Shown piece by piece: positions 3,095 through 30,703 of a DNA stretch of 32,000 bases. A program made the translations under genes and the position numbers. Numbering within the stretch: position 1 is the stretch's first letter; each line of letters opens with the position of its first letter. The notes beneath the pieces were generated by a model. It saw only the letters and a list, made by a program, of their open reading frames with translations, was not told the DNA's origin and made no database searches. Source of the stretch: an uncultured Clostridium sp. (GTDB lineage Bacteria; Bacillota; Clostridia; TANB77; CAG-508); NCBI GenBank assembly GCA_947073285.1, contig CAMTJT010000006.1, forward strand, positions 46,972-78,971, read 5' to 3'.

Positions 3095-3223
3095 TACATT
3101 CGCTATTTCTAACCAAAAAATGCTTCGCATTTTTGGCTAAGAACTAGCTTCTTCTCCTCTTCGTTACGCATTCGCTATTTCTAACCCAAAAATGCTTTGC
3201 ATTTTTGGCTAAGAACTAGCTTC
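3095..3223 (-). repeat. tandem duplication (72-nt period) of a ~55-nt element carrying a perfect 10-bp hairpin, in the rplB-rpsS spacer
   Basis: 3095-3151 and 3165-3223 are near-identical (cattcgctatttctaacc(c)aaaaa(a)tgctt(c/t)gcatttttggctaagaactagcttc). Each contains CCAAAAATGC/GCATTTTTGG. Copy 2 abuts the rplB stop codon. Confidence 0.85.
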
Positions 3224-4049
3224 ATTTCCTTCTTTTGGTTATTAATTTATTAGAAGCTTTATTTTTCTTTCTTGTTTTATATCCAAGTGCTGGTTTGCCC
3301 CAAGGTGTCATTGGTCCTGCGTGTCCTACTGGTGCTCTACCTTCACCACCACCATGAGGGTGATCTACTGGGTTCATTACAGAACCTCTAACTGTTGGTC
3401 TAATTCCCATATGTCTTGTTCTACCAGCTTTACCAATTTTAACATTTTCATGATCTGTATTTCCTACAGTACCAATTGTTGCTCTGCAGATAGCCATTAT
3501 TAATCTCATTTCGCCAGAAGGTAATCTTACATGTGCATATTTTCCTTCTTTTGCCATTAATTGAGCTTCTTGACCAGCTGCTCTTACTAATTTTCCACCT
3601 TGACCTGGATTTAATTCGATATTGTGTATCATAGTACCTACTGGAATATTTTCTATTTTCATACAGTTACCTGGTTTGATATCTGCTCTTTCTCCTGATA
3701 CTACTTTATCACCATCTTTTAATCCAACTGGTGCTAAGATATATGCTTTTTCTCCATCTTCATATTCAATTAATGCGATGTTTGCACTTCTGTTTGGATC
3801 ATATTCAATACCAATAACAGTTGCTTGCATATCTTCTTTATTTCTTTTAAAATCAATAATTCTATATTTTTGTCTGTTTCCTCCGCCTTGATGTCTTACT
3901 GTAATTCTACCATATGCGTTTCTACCTGCATTTTTCTTTTTAGTAGCAAGTAAAGACTTTTCTGGGGTCTTTTTTGTAATTTCTTCAAATGTAGAAACTG
4001 TCATGTTTCTTCTTGAAGGTGTGTATGGTTTAAAATGTTTCATTCCCAT
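3222..4049 (-). CDS. rplB: 50S ribosomal protein L2 (uL2)
   Basis: 275-aa ORF with ...[16 protein letters not shown]...[15 protein letters not shown]..., canonical uL2. Confidence 0.98.
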
Positions 4050-12597: not shown

Positions 12598-12679
12598 TTA
12601 CTTTTAAAATTTAACTTAACTATCTTTAAAATTTTGACTTAAATAAATTCTTAACACCATATAAAGTTTAAACTAAAAA

Positions 12680-12718
12680 AGTTCTTAAAATATTAACCTT
12701 TTTAACATTTTAAGAACT
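12680..12718. terminator. bidirectional hairpin terminator between the convergent dapB and 1145-aa genes
   Basis: AGTTCTTAAAAT, 15-nt loop, ATTTTAAGAACT: a perfect 12-bp stem flanked by an A-run on the 5' side and a T-run on the 3' side. Confidence 0.6.
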
Positions 12719-12742
12719 TTTCTTGATTCTCATTTGCAATTT

Positions 12743-15700
12743 TTATCTTTGTACATCTGTTGATATTTGCAAATGGCGTGTTATTTCTGCAATAAATTCT
12801 TGTGCCTCTTGCCTTTTTTTACTATTTACAAAATTCCTTGCAAATCTCTCTATTTCTTCTTTCGCTATCATAAAATTATTATCCCAAAGTTCAGCATCCT
12901 CTTCTATAAATCCACCATCTTCTCCCCAGCCTCCTTGTTCTTCTTCCCAATCATTTTCCCAATCTTCCTCTTCCCATTGTTCTTCTAGGCCATCTCTTCC
13001 TTCTGGTAGTTCTAGGTTTGATAAATCTATATTAATTAATCTTTTCAATTCTTCTGGGTCTGTATAAAGTGCAACTGTTTTTTCATTACTACTTACTTTA
13101 GCAGTATTTTGTGCCTCTGGATCTTGATATAAAATAAATTGTGTTCTAGAATCAGCAATATATTCTACATCTTCTTCTGGTGCTCTATTTTCATCATCTA
13201 GTTTTAATCCTTTTAAACTAATATCTGAATAACCACTCCCTACTGTTACTTTTGTAAGCCTTTGACTACTTACAGTTTGCTCTATTCTAGCTTTTTGAAC
13301 TTCAAATTCCTGATCTGAAATTTCTCCATTTTCTTTTTGTTTCATAAGTTCTGAAAGTTTTGTTTTACTCCAATTTTCAAATTGCTCTTTGTCTACTTCT
13401 ATAAATTCTTGTGCTGCTCTTTGAATGGTATTTAATATTTCATTACTAACTAGTCTTTTATGATGATGATCTCTTTGAACTGTTTCTACATTATCCAAAC
13501 ATAAAACATTTTTATTTCTCCAAATCCAACTTTGTGATACTACTTTTCCATTTGTATCTCTTACAACTAATACCCTGCCATTTTGAGACATAATACTATG
13601 TAACATACAGCTTTCTCCAGCATTGTTCATAGCTTGACAACAATTTGTTAACTCTCCTACAAATATGGCAGCTGGGTCATCTAGCCTTAAGACTTGATAA
13701 GTATAGTTTTCTAAAGAAACATCTTCCCCAATCGCTGGAATGCTACTTTGAGTTCTTTTTAATTGCTCTTGATGCAACCTTACTGCTTGGTTAAACATAC
13801 TTTGGTCATAATTACAATTAACACTTAATTTAGCTATTTCTATATCTTGTGGTTGCACATTACTATATGTAATATTTGATAAATAAGCTGTACACATATC
13901 AAAAGTAATTTCTTGCCCTATAAATTCCTCTTGTATTTTTTCCCATTGATTTTGAATTTTAGCAAGCATCTTTTGTATGTCTTGCCTTTGTAATATAGTT
14001 TCTAAATTTTTAACAAAAAAATTATAAAAACCTGGTTTATAATGCATATCCATTCCATCAAATATAGCATGCATTTTATTTTTTGTCATAATATTAGAAA
14101 CACCTAACTCTCCATATAAATATCTTATCTCATCTGTCAAATCTTCTCTTGTTTTAGCATCTAGTGTTTGTAAATTTCTTGTTAATTGATATTGGCATTG
14201 TAAATCATATGCCTTTTTATAACCTTTTCTATATATATACTGTATAATTGCGCTTTCTCCTACTGCTATTTCTTCTGTTGCTATTTCTTGCTCATTATCT
14301 TCTACTTCTTTAAGAACTTCCTTCATCTGGTTAGGAGACATACTCTCTGGTAGATTCCACTCTAATAACTGTTTTCTTGCTACTTCTCTATCTCCTCCAA
14401 ACATTTTTAAGAATATAGGATCATTGTATAAACTATATAAACTCAATTCATATCGTAAACTCTCTGGTATCTTTTGTTCTGAAACTAATTCAAAATTTTC
14501 TTGCAATATGTCTTCCATAGCAAATCCACGACTATCTTGTATACTCTCTTCTATCTTTCTTGAACTTGCACTGATTTGTGTTGGAATATAAATAGCAAAT
14601 TTTTGAAGTAGGCTATACCTTCTTTTAGCATCTTCATCTGTTTCAAAAACTCCCATAACATGAATTGCCTCAATTAGTGCATTTTTTGCATCATCATCTT
14701 GACTATATATATTATGTTTTACTAATTCTGCCCATTTTTTCTTATCAAACTTTTCTATTTGGTCTTCTGGATATTTTAGCATCACTCTAAGTGGTGGTAT
14801 AAATCTTGCTACCTCCTGGAATTTTTTAGCTTTTTGAAACACTACTTCTATTTCGCTTAATGACACTGTTGATTGTTCATTATCATTTCTTTGTGCTACT
14901 GATTTATATCTATTATATAGACTTGTTACAATTCTTCCTAAAACTGGACCTTTTTTACTACTTTTAAAAGAACTAACTAATTCTCTTATTGCATCATTAT
15001 TTAATAAGTCTTCTGCAAATTTTGCCATAGAATATTCTACTTGATGAGCAGGTTCTTCAGTATAACCAAAAATCCTATCCATAGGGTCTTCTGGTCCTTG
15101 CAGTGTTAGTATTTTTTCTGGCTCTTGAATATCTTCTATTTCTAGTAATTTTAAAAGTAATATACCATGTTCATCTAGCCTTTTAATTAATAGGTCATCT
15201 TCTGAAAATTTTAAAAGTTCTTGTGCAGAATACTTTTCTACAAATTCGTTTCTTAGAAAATACCACCTAAAAGGAATACTATTAGGCATTTTATCCTTCC
15301 AATTATTCCAGTTTTCTACCATAGAACTATCTTTTAATAGACCTGCTCTATTTGCTTCTACTAATTGGTCATATACTTGCTCATCACTTTCTTCATGCAT
15401 CATTTTTAAAACCTCTTGTGGAAATTTAGCAGTTATTTCAAGATATTCTTCATATAATTTATCGATTTCTTCTCTCGTTACCTTTTCTCTTGTTTTTCCT
15501 GATGTCCAACGATAGCTATTTCCAAAAATTCTTTCTTGAAAATTTCTTGAAAATAACACTGCTAGTTTTTCTGGGCTATCTTTAAATAATGCCTCAAATT
15601 CTTCTATTGAAATTTTTTCATCATTTTCTTGTATAACACTTTGTATTTTATTACTTAATCTAAAAATTGTTTCTGCATCAAATAAACTCATAGCTGTATC

Positions 15701-16180
15701 ACTTAATAATAAACAACTAGTAGGCTCAAATGTAAAACATTCTGCTTCAAGTAACAATTTTTCTATTTTTTTATAGTTTTCCATCATTCCATTTACTTTT
15801 ACATGTTGTAAAACTTTTATATGTTCTGATGGTCTATAGTAACCTAAAAGTCCCCACTCTCTATTTTGTGAAAAATAATTATAATCTTCTAAAATGCCAT
15901 CTTTATTTTGAATAAAATCTCGCATTTCTTGTGAAAAAATACTAGTATCTTCTTGTGCTATTCTTTTTTCTATTTCTTCAAAACTAAGCTCTTTTGATGT
16001 TTCTTGAACTCCGTCAAGTATGTTTAGTACTTCCCAATCTAGCGTACTAGCTAAAGTAAATAAAATGTCTACCCCATATTTCTCTAGATTTTCTTTTGTT
16101 AAAATAGTATTTTCATAATGTTTCATTGTAAAATCAGGATATTTTTGTTTTATAATTGCATATATTTCATCTTTTTCCAT
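12743..16180 (-). CDS. 1145-aa acidic cytoplasmic protein of unknown function
   Basis: Uninterrupted 3.4-kb ORF with GGAAGG SD, 15 nt downstream of the 152-aa ORF. No signal peptide, TM segment, Walker A or nuclease motif recognised. Cys/His cluster ELTNCCQAMNNAGESCMLH at about aa 843-861. Trp/acidic tail EEQWEEEDWENDWEEEQGGWGEDGG at about aa 1066-1100. Confidence 0.85.
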   Translation of the reverse strand: MEKDEIYAIIKQKYPDFTMKHYENTILTKENLEKYGVDILFTLASTLDWEVLNILDGVQETSKELSFEEIEKRIAQEDTSIFSQEMRDFIQNKDGILEDYNYFSQNREWGLLGYYRPSEHIKVLQHVKVNGMMENYKKIEKLLLEAECFTFEPTSCLLLSDTAMSLFDAETIFRLSNKIQSVIQENDEKISIEEFEALFKDSPEKLAVLFSRNFQERIFGNSYRWTSGKTREKVTREEIDKLYEEYLEITAKFPQEVLKMMHEESDEQVYDQLVEANRAGLLKDSSMVENWNNWKDKMPNSIPFRWYFLRNEFVEKYSAQELLKFSEDDLLIKRLDEHGILLLKLLEIEDIQEPEKILTLQGPEDPMDRIFGYTEEPAHQVEYSMAKFAEDLLNNDAIRELVSSFKSSKKGPVLGRIVTSLYNRYKSVAQRNDNEQSTVSLSEIEVVFQKAKKFQEVARFIPPLRVMLKYPEDQIEKFDKKKWAELVKHNIYSQDDDAKNALIEAIHVMGVFETDEDAKRRYSLLQKFAIYIPTQISASSRKIEESIQDSRGFAMEDILQENFELVSEQKIPESLRYELSLYSLYNDPIFLKMFGGDREVARKQLLEWNLPESMSPNQMKEVLKEVEDNEQEIATEEIAVGESAIIQYIYRKGYKKAYDLQCQYQLTRNLQTLDAKTREDLTDEIRYLYGELGVSNIMTKNKMHAIFDGMDMHYKPGFYNFFVKNLETILQRQDIQKMLAKIQNQWEKIQEEFIGQEITFDMCTAYLSNITYSNVQPQDIEIAKLSVNCNYDQSMFNQAVRLHQEQLKRTQSSIPAIGEDVSLENYTYQVLRLDDPAAIFVGELTNCCQAMNNAGESCMLHSIMSQNGRVLVVRDTNGKVVSQSWIWRNKNVLCLDNVETVQRDHHHKRLVSNEILNTIQRAAQEFIEVDKEQFENWSKTKLSELMKQKENGEISDQEFEVQKARIEQTVSSQRLTKVTVGSGYSDISLKGLKLDDENRAPEEDVEYIADSRTQFILYQDPEAQNTAKVSSNEKTVALYTDPEELKRLINIDLSNLELPEGRDGLEEQWEEEDWENDWEEEQGGWGEDGGFIEEDAELWDNNFMIAKEEIERFARNFVNSKKRQEAQEFIAEITRHLQISTDVQR

Positions 16181-16195
16181 CTTCTGTACCTTCCT

Positions 16196-16654
16196 TTATT
16201 TTTTTAAAAACCAAGATTTTAGCTTATCTAATATTTTTCTAAAAATATTTTTTTCTTTTACAATAGCAAGTTGCTTTGTTTGGGTTTGTACTTTATTAGC
16301 ATTTTTTTCTTGCATGTTTTTAGGAAACATCTCTTTTACTTCAATATTTCCTTGCTTATTTTGTTCTTGTTTATAAAAATTATCATATTCTTTCCACTTT
16401 TTCTTTTCTTCTTCTGAACACAAATAATTACTATAAATAGCAGAAAGTAACCCTTGTGTTTCTGGCATAATTTTCTGTTCTTCTAGTGAAACTGTTTTAT
16501 CATAAGTAAAATGATATTCTTTATCCATATTTTTTATAAATTCTTGTTTTATTTCTTGTGGAATTTTATTTTGCAATTCTAAACTCATATGTTTAATAAT
16601 TTCATTTAATTCTACTAATGCTTTACAATACATAAGTTTTTTCTCTTGTATCAT
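16196..16654 (-). CDS. 152-aa hypothetical protein, first gene of the two-gene operon
   Basis: ORF with AAGGAAAGGAGAAAGG SD. Lys/Glu/Gln-rich, probably helical, with no recognisable motif. Tightly coupled to the 1145-aa ORF. Confidence 0.75.
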   Translation of the reverse strand: MIQEKKLMYCKALVELNEIIKHMSLELQNKIPQEIKQEFIKNMDKEYHFTYDKTVSLEEQKIMPETQGLLSAIYSNYLCSEEEKKKWKEYDNFYKQEQNKQGNIEVKEMFPKNMQEKNANKVQTQTKQLAIVKEKNIFRKILDKLKSWFLKK

Positions 16655-16843: not shown

Positions 16844-16882
16844 CTAAAAAAAGGAGAGGTGCACTTGCGCCCTCTCCTTGCT
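16844..16882 (-). terminator. rho-independent terminator after the GC-rich ORF
   Basis: Minus strand reads AAGGAGAGGGCGC, loop AAGT, GCACCTCTCCTT, followed by T7. Confidence 0.7.
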
Positions 16883-16924
16883 TAGGTTATTTTTTGCTAT
16901 TTTCCTGTTGCTTGGCTTTTCGGC

Positions 16925-17197
16925 TTATCTTTCCTCCTCGTCTTCTTTGATGTTCGGTCTTCCCGTTGTTTTGACCTCCTGAATCATGTAGATTGTGTCC
17001 GAAGACTTGGTGACCATGATGCCACCCCAGGCCTTTGCCGATGCAGCAGGTCCTGTGTCATCAATTCTGGCGCAGCCCTGCATCGAAAAGATACCAATGT
17101 AGTCTCCCAGCATCTCAGAAATGCATACCGAGGCATCAGGTTCCAGCTGTTCCCGATCCACTTCCACAGGAAAGCTCGCTTTGTTGATGATTGTCAT
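16925..17197 (-). CDS. 90-aa hypothetical protein in a ~50% GC islet
   Basis: ATG at 17197 preceded by GGAGG 9 nt upstream. MTIINKASFPVEVDREQLEPDASVCISEMLGDYIGIFSMQGCARIDDTG... Codon usage (CTG, CAG, GGC, GCC, CGG) is unlike the neighbouring genes. Has its own terminator. The 112-aa version in the track overlaps the upstream gene and lacks an SD. Confidence 0.65.
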   Translation of the reverse strand: MTIINKASFPVEVDREQLEPDASVCISEMLGDYIGIFSMQGCARIDDTGPAASAKAWGGIMVTKSSDTIYMIQEVKTTGRPNIKEDEEER

Positions 17198-17259
17198 TGT
17201 TAATAACCTCCAAAAAAAATTATTGGCATCTTTAATTATATCATACTTTATGTTACCTG

Positions 17260-17649
17260 TCAAAAGATATTTACAATTTTTAAAGCAGATTTATCTTTTA
17301 TATGTTCTAATATAAAAGTACAATTACTCAAATTTTCAGCTGCCATGCTATATTCTTCCATTTCTATATCAGAACCTAGCTTGGTTAATTCTGTTCCTAC
17401 TTTTTCTAATTCATCATGTTCTATATAATATGCCATTGTTTCATAATAATCGTTCCATGCTTTTTGTACCTTCTGCATTTTTTGTTTTGCCTTTTCTTTA
17501 CTTGCGGTTTCCTTTGTTACCTCTTCTTGTAACACCTCTAAATTACTTTTCATTTCATCTACTATTTTGACAGTATTATTTTGAGTAATAATGTTTCCTA
17601 CTGCTATTAAAGCAATTACTACAATACAAATTATTATTTCTTTATACAC
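17260..17649 (-). CDS. DUF4363-like membrane-anchored protein
   Basis: 129 aa with an N-terminal TM helix and a helical domain. This is the usual partner gene downstream of DUF421/YetF-type genes in Clostridia. GTG start with a weak SD, so the start is uncertain. Confidence 0.6.
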   Translation of the reverse strand: MYKEIIICIVVIALIAVGNIITQNNTVKIVDEMKSNLEVLQEEVTKETASKEKAKQKMQKVQKAWNDYYETMAYYIEHDELEKVGTELTKLGSDIEMEEYSMAAENLSNCTFILEHIKDKSALKIVNIF

Positions 17650-18386: not shown

Positions 18387-18625
18387 ATTTCACGCTCCGC
18401 TATTAACACTTTTATTGTTAATTTTATTCATTTTTCTTATTATCATTTTGAACAAAAAAAATAAATTTATTCATAATTGTTTGAATAAATTTTTATTTTT
18501 AGTTCATAATAAATTTAGAAAACCATCAAAAAGGTTTTAGCAAATGTTTTAATTTTTTTAATGCATTTGCCCAATCCGTACATTTAAGTACCTACTTAGA
18601 ATTACGGAAAAGGAGGTTTTTGAAA

Positions 18626-19003
18626 ATGTCAGATAATAATGCAAACACACAAACAAGATCAAATACCAAAGGCACAGTATGGCAAATTGTTGGTAGATTA
18701 GTTACTGCTGCAATCGTTCTTGCTGTTACTGCATTTTTTACACCAGGATTCCAAATTAATAATATTTGGTCATTAGCAGCAGCTGCTATTGTTCTTACTA
18801 TTATTGATTATTTAATTACTAAATTTACAGGATTACATGCAAGTTCTTTTGGTAAAGGATTTGTAGGATTTGTTCTTTCTGCTGTAGTATTATATGTTAC
18901 TCAATACTTTGTAGCAGGATACACAGTATCTTGGATGGCAGCTATTATTGGTGCTTTAGTATATGGTGTTGTAGACTATTTTCTTCCTGGCGAACAACAA
19001 TAG
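18626..19003 (+). CDS. small integral membrane protein (about 3 TM segments, holin-like or DUF360-like)
   Basis: AGGAGG 9 nt upstream of the ATG at 18626. The TTG at 18620 used in the track is too close to the SD. Hydrophobic segments LVTAAIVLAVTAFF, LAAAAIVLTIIDYLI, FVGFVLSAVVLYV, AAIIGALVYGVV. Confidence 0.7.
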   Translation: MSDNNANTQTRSNTKGTVWQIVGRLVTAAIVLAVTAFFTPGFQINNIWSLAAAAIVLTIIDYLITKFTGLHASSFGKGFVGFVLSAVVLYVTQYFVAGYTVSWMAAIIGALVYGVVDYFLPGEQQ

Positions 19004-30407: not shown

Positions 30408-30483
30408 TGGTTGGGGTACTAGGATTCGAACCTAGGAAATGCCTGAGTCAGAGTCAGGTGCCTTACCGCTTGGCTATACCCCA
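30408..30483 (-). tRNA. tRNA-Gln (anticodon CUG), CCA encoded
   Basis: Minus strand reads TGGGGTA TA GCCAAGCGGTAAGGC A CCTGA CTCTGAC TCAGG CATTTC CTAGG TTCGAAT CCTAG TACCCCA A CCA. Cloverleaf folded by eye. The D-arm is typical of Gln tRNAs. Confidence 0.85.
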
Positions 30484-30550
30484 ATATAAAGTCACTACAA
30501 TGTTACCACATACTGACGTTGTAATCGGCATAGCCTCAACAACCTCAGCA

Positions 30551-30573
30551 GCTTGGCTATACCCCAATATAAA
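30551..30573 (-). repeat. 23-nt perfect duplicate of the tRNA-Gln 5' end plus 7 upstream nt
   Basis: gcttggctataccccaatataaa occurs at 30468-30490 and again at 30551-30573 (83-nt offset). Confidence 0.9.
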
Positions 30574-30703
30574 ATTACTACATATCCCATATTATTGCAT
30601 ATTTTTTTACAAATTGCTACTATTTTTTGAAAATTTTTTATTGATTTTGCTTTTTTCTTAATATATACTTAAGTTATCATAAAAAAATAATGGAGGTTTA
30701 CTT

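Follow-up and report, generated by a model that had tools for sequence, protein, structure and literature searches.

What kind of module is formed by two tightly spaced bacterial genes whose products match no protein family model, and what might the larger product do? The question is raised by a 32,000-nucleotide stretch, here called the window, from an uncultured Clostridium sp. (assembly GCA_947073285.1, contig CAMTJT010000006.1), in which a small gene and a large gene, encoding proteins of 152 and 1145 amino acids (aa), lie one after the other on the minus strand (Table 1). Both open reading frames (ORFs), the 15-nt gap between them and the ribosome-binding site are located where an initial annotation, made from the sequence alone, had placed them. 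That annotation also suggested a defence, anti-defence or effector role. The reading preferred here, tentatively and at a little under an even chance, is that the pair is a chromosomal, vertically inherited module in which the large protein is of the transferase type and joins a GNAT-derived core to a variable scaffold for recognition, with the small basic protein as its adaptor. Uncultured gut Bacillota widely carry a module of two to three genes, of which the pair would be a reduced version. Three features went beyond the initial annotation: the very large family to which the large protein belongs, the ProA-paralogue partner of that family, and the GNAT-like core of the large protein.

Family and fold of the large protein

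The large protein is acidic, with an isoelectric point (pI) of 4.75 and 212 Asp and Glu residues versus 138 Lys and Arg residues, and no transmembrane segment is predicted in it (the top 19-residue Kyte-Doolittle mean is 1.26), in agreement with what had been read from the sequence. The initial statement that neither product has a placeable motif is also borne out: Pfam, NCBIfam, PHROGs and PADLOC gave no significant family for the large or the small protein. PDB sequence searches with profiles found nothing, and self-BLAST detected no internal repeats in the large protein.

Relatives of the large protein are nevertheless numerous. A word-indexed search returned only 3, and an exhaustive profile search of 1.84 billion cluster representatives (50%-identity clusters) returned 2285 representatives at E ≤ 1e-3, 268 of them at E ≤ 1e-30. 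Family members range from 1100 to 1900 aa and most have 1500-1700 aa; the large protein aligns to the C-terminal ~1100 residues of these longer relatives. Where NCBI names are given, they are "unknown" or "hypothetical protein", and a Pfam scan of five long members found no domain except DUF4116 repeats in one. A scan of GTDB with one genome per species found 180 encoded relatives. Among the best 80 of these 180 loci, all are from gut metagenome-assembled genomes labelled Clostridia, Bacilli, "Tenericutes"/Mycoplasmatota or similar; Clostridium sp. CAG:571 and Mycoplasma sp. CAG:877 are examples of carriers. The family thus comprises more than 2000 cluster representatives without a Pfam, NCBIfam or PHROG model and is confined to abundant uncultured gut lineages, namely RF39-like Bacilli and CAG-type Clostridia.

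Two independent AlphaFold models, one of the C-terminal module (residues 690-1145, from a 31-sequence alignment) and one of the full-length protein (from 57 sequences), agree with each other. Their predicted local distance difference test (pLDDT) values are 78 and 72, respectively, and exceed 90 in the core. The confidently modelled region spans residues 440-1050. Residues 1-440, which precede it, correspond to the repeat-bearing scaffold of the longer relatives. The middle domain that follows has no structural neighbour in the PDB, where Foldseek gave only GNATs. The only recognisable fold is the GNAT-like core, modelled as a strand (826-830), two helices (837-844 and 856-864), three strands (868-875, 880-889 and 892-895), a helical hairpin (912-973) and two further strands (977-981 and 1014-1019). 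The Cys/His cluster named in the initial annotation is present (C847, C848, C858, H861 and C894), and the hydrophobic stretch described as beta-like is modelled as three strands. The segment described as coiled-coil-like is modelled as the helical hairpin, and the Trp-rich acidic tail as disordered; the tail is prone to indels, with an 8-aa insertion in close relatives. Matches of the hairpin region to SHOCT are sub-threshold and were seen in 13 of 31 members (best E = 1.5e-4).

Foldseek searches of the PDB with both models return almost exclusively GNAT-fold proteins in the top 50. Among them are tGcn5 (1m1d), with a probability of 0.97-0.98 and a target TM score of up to 0.50, and NatD, SpeG, VipF, FemX and the L/F-transferase. 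Both models show the element order of the mixed alpha/beta GNAT fold, a fixed succession of six or seven strands and four helices, and the same order is found in tGcn5, NatD/Naa40 (4u9w), SpeG and Legionella VipF. Gcn5-type enzymes carry a general base on or just after the fourth strand, and the conserved acidic residues of the large protein are located likewise. Differences from these GNATs are a 60-residue helical hairpin in place of the third helix, an additional constellation of Cys and His residues (CCQ and C-x2-H), and the embedding of the core in a protein of 1100-1900 aa. FemX (1xe4, 1ne9 and 4ii9) and the L/F-transferase (2z3l and 2dpt) resemble the large protein in lacking the coenzyme A (CoA) loop. 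They rank and score below the acetyltransferases (probability 0.35-0.87), show no sequence similarity to the large protein, and have two GNAT-like lobes, whereas the large protein is modelled with one. In Staphylococcus aureus FemA, a long coiled-coil arm is inserted in the GNAT-like domain.

Conservation was read from alignments of 31 to 150 sequences. Near-invariant residues are F460, P462, W483, G510 and F512 in the middle domain and, in the core, R809, I814-P815, G842, C847-C848-Q849, H861-S862, G868-R869, Q883-S-W885-x-W887-R-N, C894-F-D896-N-I-E899, T979-x-G981-x-G983-Y, D1010, Q1014 and D1041. They are concentrated on and around the fourth and fifth strands, and all signature residues are retained in the large protein of the window. 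Even the very distant members P0174 and P0175 retain CCQ, QSW/FxW, FDNIE and (T/V)IGxxYxD; P0174 has another architecture, in which BspA-type leucine-rich repeats are joined to the core domain. In the models, CCQ is part of the loop that connects helices one and two, C-FDNxE is located on and just after the fourth strand, and TVGxGY follows the fifth strand. The active-site cleft of GNATs is formed by the loop between the first two helices and by the fourth-strand and fifth-strand regions. The near-invariant residues therefore cluster where GNATs bind their donor and catalyse, and this pattern suggests acyl or aminoacyl transfer.

Under the preferred reading, the variable helical N-terminal scaffold, with its fast-evolving patches, would recognise a target or partner. 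The conserved middle domain would lie between this scaffold and the core, and the predicted C-terminal GNAT-fold domain would pass an acyl or aminoacyl group to an acceptor, either a macromolecule or a small molecule. C848, H861 and C894 may be catalytic or metal-binding. Because the canonical CoA pyrophosphate loop is missing, the donor is probably something other than classical acetyl-CoA. What has been observed is the two genes with their operon anatomy, the family and its conservation pattern, the similarity in fold and the setting in the genome; catalysis, donor, localisation and target are inferred.

Partner genes and genomic setting

The small protein is basic (pI 9.1) and consists of a conserved helical N-terminal domain of ~95 aa, a variable linker and a conserved C-terminal tail. 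Conserved residues of the N-terminal domain are A12, I19, K30-I31-P32, L57, Q60, L69, Y74 and Y77. No PDB match was found for this protein. The tail is a basic amphipathic helix that could, as conjecture, tether the protein to a membrane or a partner. The small protein may serve as an adaptor for the acidic large protein, by localising or by regulating it. The idea that it is the detached N-terminus of the long relatives was rejected: its hidden Markov model (HMM) matched none of 150 large representatives, nor any of the large genes in the related loci.

The initial annotation described the small gene as a partner of the large one. ORFs were called and clustered in 83 related loci, and the small gene is not the characteristic partner of the family. 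Its homologues are found in only 15 of the 83 loci, all from the Clostridia branch, on the same strand and within 4 kb of the large gene, at identities down to 21%. In six of them (L002-L004, L048, L066 and L067) the small gene is directly upstream of the large gene, as in the window, and in L005-L008 it follows a ProA-like gene. A metagenome scan started from the small protein yielded two loci, both with 100-aa homologues that lack the tail. In one of these (metagenome contig ERZ1643246, L096:2573-2875) the free-standing N-terminal domain, 45% identical, is directly upstream of polA, and no gene of the large family was found within 6 kb of it. The small N-terminal domain is therefore not exclusive to the module.

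The more constant partner is a paralogue of ProA, gamma-glutamyl phosphate reductase. In 71 of the 83 loci, a gene for a protein of 320-440 aa overlaps or directly follows the large gene (for example L051:9451-10770 and L001:6952-7941). Its profile matches ProA structures over both the N- and C-terminal halves (E = 6e-24 to 1e-13). About 70 residues of ProA (~247-314 in 8zok), a stretch that includes the catalytic cysteine region, have no counterpart in the partner, whose alignment also has no conserved Cys; reductase activity is therefore improbable for it. Partner variants of 430 aa carry a tail similar to the amphipathic helix of the small protein. A six-frame search of the window revealed no ProA-like partner, which is also absent from the closest relatives, L002-L004. 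With this partner absent and the small gene kept, what the window carries is a reduced version of a module of two to three genes. The ProA paralogue fills the partner position in most relatives and would have been lost in this lineage. In L040 and L047, the giant gene is present as a tandem duplicate (~1660 aa, then 1170-1550 aa) without a ProA-like partner.

The genomic surroundings point to a chromosomal, vertically inherited locus. The 97 immediate neighbours in the 83 loci belong to 80 different Pfam families, mostly housekeeping, such as ABC transporters, RsgA, pyridoxal phosphate enzymes, OGG, rotamase, FtsW and L17; Mob_Pre occurs in two of the neighbours and DUF1016 in one. Defence, integrase and transposase genes are not enriched among these neighbours. 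No relatives were found in 72,556 plasmids, and none in IMG/VR by a pattern scan. GC content is flat, at ~29%, across the locus in the window. Three further independent assemblies of the same species (L002, L097 and L098) carry the same gene pair at the same position and in an identical arrangement. Synteny partly survives at ~50% identity, with a UDPGP gene downstream in L007 and L010 and Suf genes upstream in L067. It had been asked at the outset whether the pair is always together and whether it is enriched in islands. The pair is not constant, no enrichment in mobile or defence regions is apparent, and the conserved position holds among the assemblies of the same species.

Catalysis, scaffolding or conflict

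Several observations weigh against a transferase reading. The structural comparison proposed with the initial annotation did disclose a GNAT-like core, but the Foldseek E-values to GNATs in the PDB are weak (0.014-0.4, thus 0.014 or worse) and the query TM scores are low, the latter because the query is large. None of the GNAT models of Pfam (Acetyltransf_1, _7, _10 and others) matches the large protein at E ≤ 1, and no GNAT model is among the 25 families listed for 31 members at E ≤ 10. The CoA pyrophosphate loop, Q/R-x-x-G-x-G/A after the fourth strand, is not in the alignment consensus; after FDN(I/V)E the family consensus is IPxKxFxR..., with no Gly motif, and the corresponding loop in the window is TVQRDHHHKRL, modelled at low pLDDT. 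H861 is lost in the distant members P0174 and P0175, and P0174 has also lost C894 and the hairpin. A partner without a conserved Cys fits a non-catalytic assembly equally well, and what is proposed above for the amphipathic helix and for the mosaic patches is conjecture throughout.

Many of these points would be accommodated by a non-catalytic scaffold, an alternative that is doubtful yet deserves to be weighed. The large protein would then be a structural or regulatory platform, for instance one associated with the envelope or with division, in which the GNAT-like domain and the ProA-like protein are binding modules and the small protein is a membrane anchor. The absent CoA loop, the lack of a GNAT HMM match, and a usual partner that has neither a counterpart of the ProA catalytic segment nor a conserved Cys are consistent with it. 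So are the long helical N-terminus, the coiled-coil hairpin with its SHOCT-like motif, the disordered acidic tail, the amphipathic C-terminal helix of the small protein with the similar tail on the 430-aa partner variants, and the wide distribution of the family in small-genome gut lineages. The strictest conservation, however, falls on polar and Cys residues at the GNAT cleft (C848, D896, N897, E899, Q883, R888, D1010 and Q1014), a pattern that chemistry produces more typically than packing does. Some lineages have, moreover, lost or reshuffled the module, and tandem duplicates occur in L040 and L047, which would be unusual for an essential scaffold.

Outside the family, the GNAT-like core has its nearest, though distant, relatives in phages. 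Foldseek searches of BFVD ranked A0A7G9A3X2 first (E = 1.9e-11), followed by two models annotated as PcfJ-like (E = 3.7e-4 and 6.4e-3) and then by viral GNATs. The alignment to A0A7G9A3X2 (Bacteriophage sp., 656 aa) extends over 329 columns. ORF68L of Microcystis phage MaMV-DC (697 aa) was found by tblastn at 27% identity over residues 28-212 of the C-terminal module (E = 2e-9). These two uncharacterised proteins, which are phage-encoded, shorter than the family and without a Pfam domain, are the closest relatives outside it.

A possible PcfJ-like character of the Cys/His region had been raised in the initial annotation, and it persists only as a weak structural echo in BFVD; the targets concerned have 900-1400 aa and low TM scores, and the aligned part may lie outside their PcfJ domain. 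Every sequence test, in contrast, failed. A search of 31 members of the family with PF14284 gave no match, although the cut-off was as loose as E ≤ 10 (a control search with pCF10 PcfJ gave 148.9 bits, against a gathering score of 25 bits). Alignments with hhalign to pCF10 PcfJ alone (E = 0.25) and to a profile of nine phage and pCF10 PcfJ sequences (E = 0.6) were not significant, and no PHROG is shared by the large protein and PcfJ. Membership in the PcfJ family by sequence was rejected on these results; it is possible that PcfJ is a remote structural relative of the large-protein family. The local layouts look alike, in that G-x-ϕϕϕ-R/D strands come after a loop with Cys, which reads HC in PcfJ and CCQ in the large protein, and both domains are uncharacterised and located at the C-termini of larger proteins. 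PcfJ (pCF10, Herelleviridae phages) is found in phages and plasmids, whereas the large-protein family is chromosomal. Should the structural resemblance to PcfJ-like proteins prove sound, that domain, widespread in phages and plasmids, would become approachable for the first time at the level of its fold. The pCF10 PcfJ gene (L084:15874-17984) overlaps a gene annotated as the Cas9 inhibitor AcrIIA9 family and lies in the same block as DpnD/PcfM. This is a hint of an anti-defence setting for true PcfJ proteins.

Comparison of strains reveals two mosaic patches in the large gene, which flank a conserved middle block. Relative to the 97%-identical L002, patch B has 19 nonsynonymous and 1 synonymous codon differences, versus 11 and 12 in the other 1030 codons (Fisher p = 8.5e-4). 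Patch A differs from L097 by 48 nt changes, with 20 nonsynonymous and 9 synonymous codon differences, versus 5 and 8 outside both patches. Six strain variants show two discrete alleles per patch, and three of the four possible combinations were seen, which points to recombination. Possible sources of the patches are the introgression of tracts and selection, either diversifying or balancing, on a surface that sets specificity. A diversity-generating retroelement was rejected within the 32 kb: there are two discrete alleles, the changes are not restricted to adenines, and a second copy of 14400-14640 that could be a template repeat is absent from the window, where reverse transcriptase was not searched for systematically.

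The mosaic patches are the one feature that speaks for a role in conflict. A new chromosomal module directed against mobile elements or serving defence, in which the transferase-like domain, structurally related to the PcfJ-like proteins of phages and plasmids, modifies a component of the invader and the patches are specificity determinants in an arms race, is unlikely on the whole. It would account for two alleles with a strong nonsynonymous excess in strains otherwise ~99% identical and for the three of four combinations. Also in keeping with it are the phage homologues of the core (A0A7G9A3X2 and MaMV-DC ORF68L), the structural neighbours annotated as PcfJ-like together with the AcrIIA9-family gene beside pCF10 PcfJ, and the layout of a large protein with a small partner. 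Yet PADLOC-DB 2.0 produced zero matches at E ≤ 1 for both proteins, and the neighbours are housekeeping genes without enrichment of defence, integrase or transposase genes. Plasmid and IMG/VR relatives are lacking in the scans described above, the composition is not anomalous, and the locus is stable within the species, occupying the same place in four assemblies, and partly syntenic at ~50% identity. The conserved partner, finally, is a paralogue of a metabolic enzyme, a kind of protein that is not known from defence systems. The reading of the initial annotation, as a defence, anti-defence or effector module, is not supported by these results.

The comparisons among strains also bear on whether the gene pair is a decaying remnant without current function, a short form that has lost ~500 N-terminal residues, the C-terminal domain of the long relatives and the ProA-like partner. 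This is very improbable. The large protein does match only the C-terminal ~1100 residues of ~1650-aa relatives, the partner is absent from the window, and in the nearest species-level relative (L004) the gene is split into two ORFs. Against decay, at least six strain variants have an uninterrupted frame of 1145 codons, all signature residues are retained, the nonsynonymous to synonymous codon differences outside the patches are 11:12 relative to L002 and 5:8 relative to L097, and relatives at 59-61% identity (L003 and L004) still have the short form together with the small partner.

A bolder reading is quite unlikely as a whole. It proposes a new enzyme class, a GNAT-derived, Cys/His-decorated transferase that shares ancestry with phage and plasmid PcfJ-like proteins, uses a non-CoA donor and modifies a macromolecule, with specificity set by the patches in the giant N-terminal half. 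Together with a ProA-derived partner that has no conserved Cys, such an enzyme would make up a hitherto unrecognised conflict or self/non-self module, fixed in the chromosome and common in uncultured gut Bacillota. As far as the searched libraries show, the fold class is known, and the family, its architecture and the ProA-paralogue partnership are undescribed. The family offers three experimental handles: the catalytic-looking GNAT-like core, the ProA paralogue without a conserved Cys as an obligate-looking partner, and the strain-variable mosaic patches.

Locus anatomy and other features of the window

Table 1. Positions of the gene pair, of regions within its products and of associated signals in the window. 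Residue numbers refer to the large protein unless stated otherwise.
Feature	Position	Strand	Observations
Small gene, 152 aa	16196..16654	-	ORF list; pI 9.1; 9 homologues; 21-sequence alignment
Small protein, C-terminal helix (basic, amphipathic), KEKNIFRKILDKLKSWFLKK	16199..16258	-	21-sequence alignment; character kept down to 21% identity
Large gene, 1145 aa	12743..16180	-	Acidic, cytoplasmic; short-form member of a family mostly ~1500-1700 aa
N-terminal region, residues 1-440	14861..16180	-	All-helical, poorly conserved, pLDDT 34-76; profile coverage low at 1-160
Mosaic patch A, residues 404-458	14807..14971	-	Two sharply different alleles among strains at least 97% identical
Middle domain, residues 441-700	14081..14860	-	Conserved F460, P462, F478, W483, G510, F512, P533; long beta-hairpins; pLDDT ~85-94
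Mosaic patch B, residues 528-582	14435..14599	-	Two alleles, almost only amino-acid-changing differences
GNAT-like core, residues ~820-1020	13121..13723	-	AlphaFold models, Foldseek (PDB and BFVD), conservation
Helical hairpin, residues 912-973	13262..13447	-	In place of the GNAT third helix; SHOCT-like motif GEISDQEFEVQKARI, residues ~947-966
Acidic Trp-rich tail, residues 1051-1099	12884..13030	-	Modelled disordered, pLDDT below 50; segment pI 4.07
Candidate promoter of the pair	16713-16685	-	TAGAAA, 17-nt spacer, TG-extended TATACT; consensus match only
22-bp AT-rich hairpin, U/A runs on both flanks	12675..12723	both	Between the large gene and convergent dapB
G+C-rich hairpin followed by U7	16844..16885	-	z = -3.7; closes the upstream DUF421-DUF4363-90aa operon

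The small and large genes are a real co-transcribed unit. The 15-nt gap between them reads TAA AGGAAGGTACAGAAG ATG and includes an AGGAAGG ribosome-binding site. A site matching the promoter consensus was found upstream of the pair, in accordance with the initial annotation, but such matches are not above chance, with 30 promoter-like sites observed in the AT-rich stretch versus 23.9 ± 5.1 expected in shuffled sequence. The bidirectional terminator that had been noted beyond the large gene is real as a structure. Compared with shuffled sequences, its 22-bp hairpin has z values of -5.3 (minus strand) and -5.1 (plus strand) and is likely to terminate transcription in both directions; a strict terminator scan missed it because its stem has few G-C pairs. 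The G+C-rich hairpin ends the upstream operon and therefore marks the 5' boundary of the gene pair. No Rfam match at E ≤ 0.1 indicated a non-coding RNA in or near the unit. On one side, the pair is flanked by dapA, an HD-domain gene and dapB, and on the other by a 90-aa ORF, DUF4363, DUF421, GlmU-like, UDPGP, DinB and YlmH genes.

The 90-aa ORF, which starts from an internal ATG as called in L002, is probably the real gene within the program-called ORF of 112 aa at 16925-17263 (-). This longer ORF has its TTG "start" on a perfect sigma-70 consensus at 17235-17263 (-), with TTGACA, a 17-nt spacer and TG-TATAAT (12 of 12 positions). The 90-aa version has no Pfam match and is bounded by the terminator at 16844-16885.

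Further from the gene pair, a 127-aa membrane protein (18620-19003, +) matches Pfam Phage_holin_4_2 (E = 2.5e-16); it stands alone among housekeeping genes, with no other phage genes nearby. Two direct 62-nt copies, 94% identical, at 3097-3158 and 3169-3230 are located between two minus-strand genes and each include a palindrome, CCAAAAATGC...GCATTTTTGG. Their folding is much more stable than that of shuffled sequences (z = -5.4 and -7.0); tandem terminators and a small repeat element are both possible readings. Finally, a tRNA gene is present at 30411-30483 (-; Rfam, 64.5 bits), and its 5' end is overlapped by one copy (30468-30499) of a 32-nt direct repeat, the second copy of which, 94% identical, lies 83 nt away at 30551-30582.

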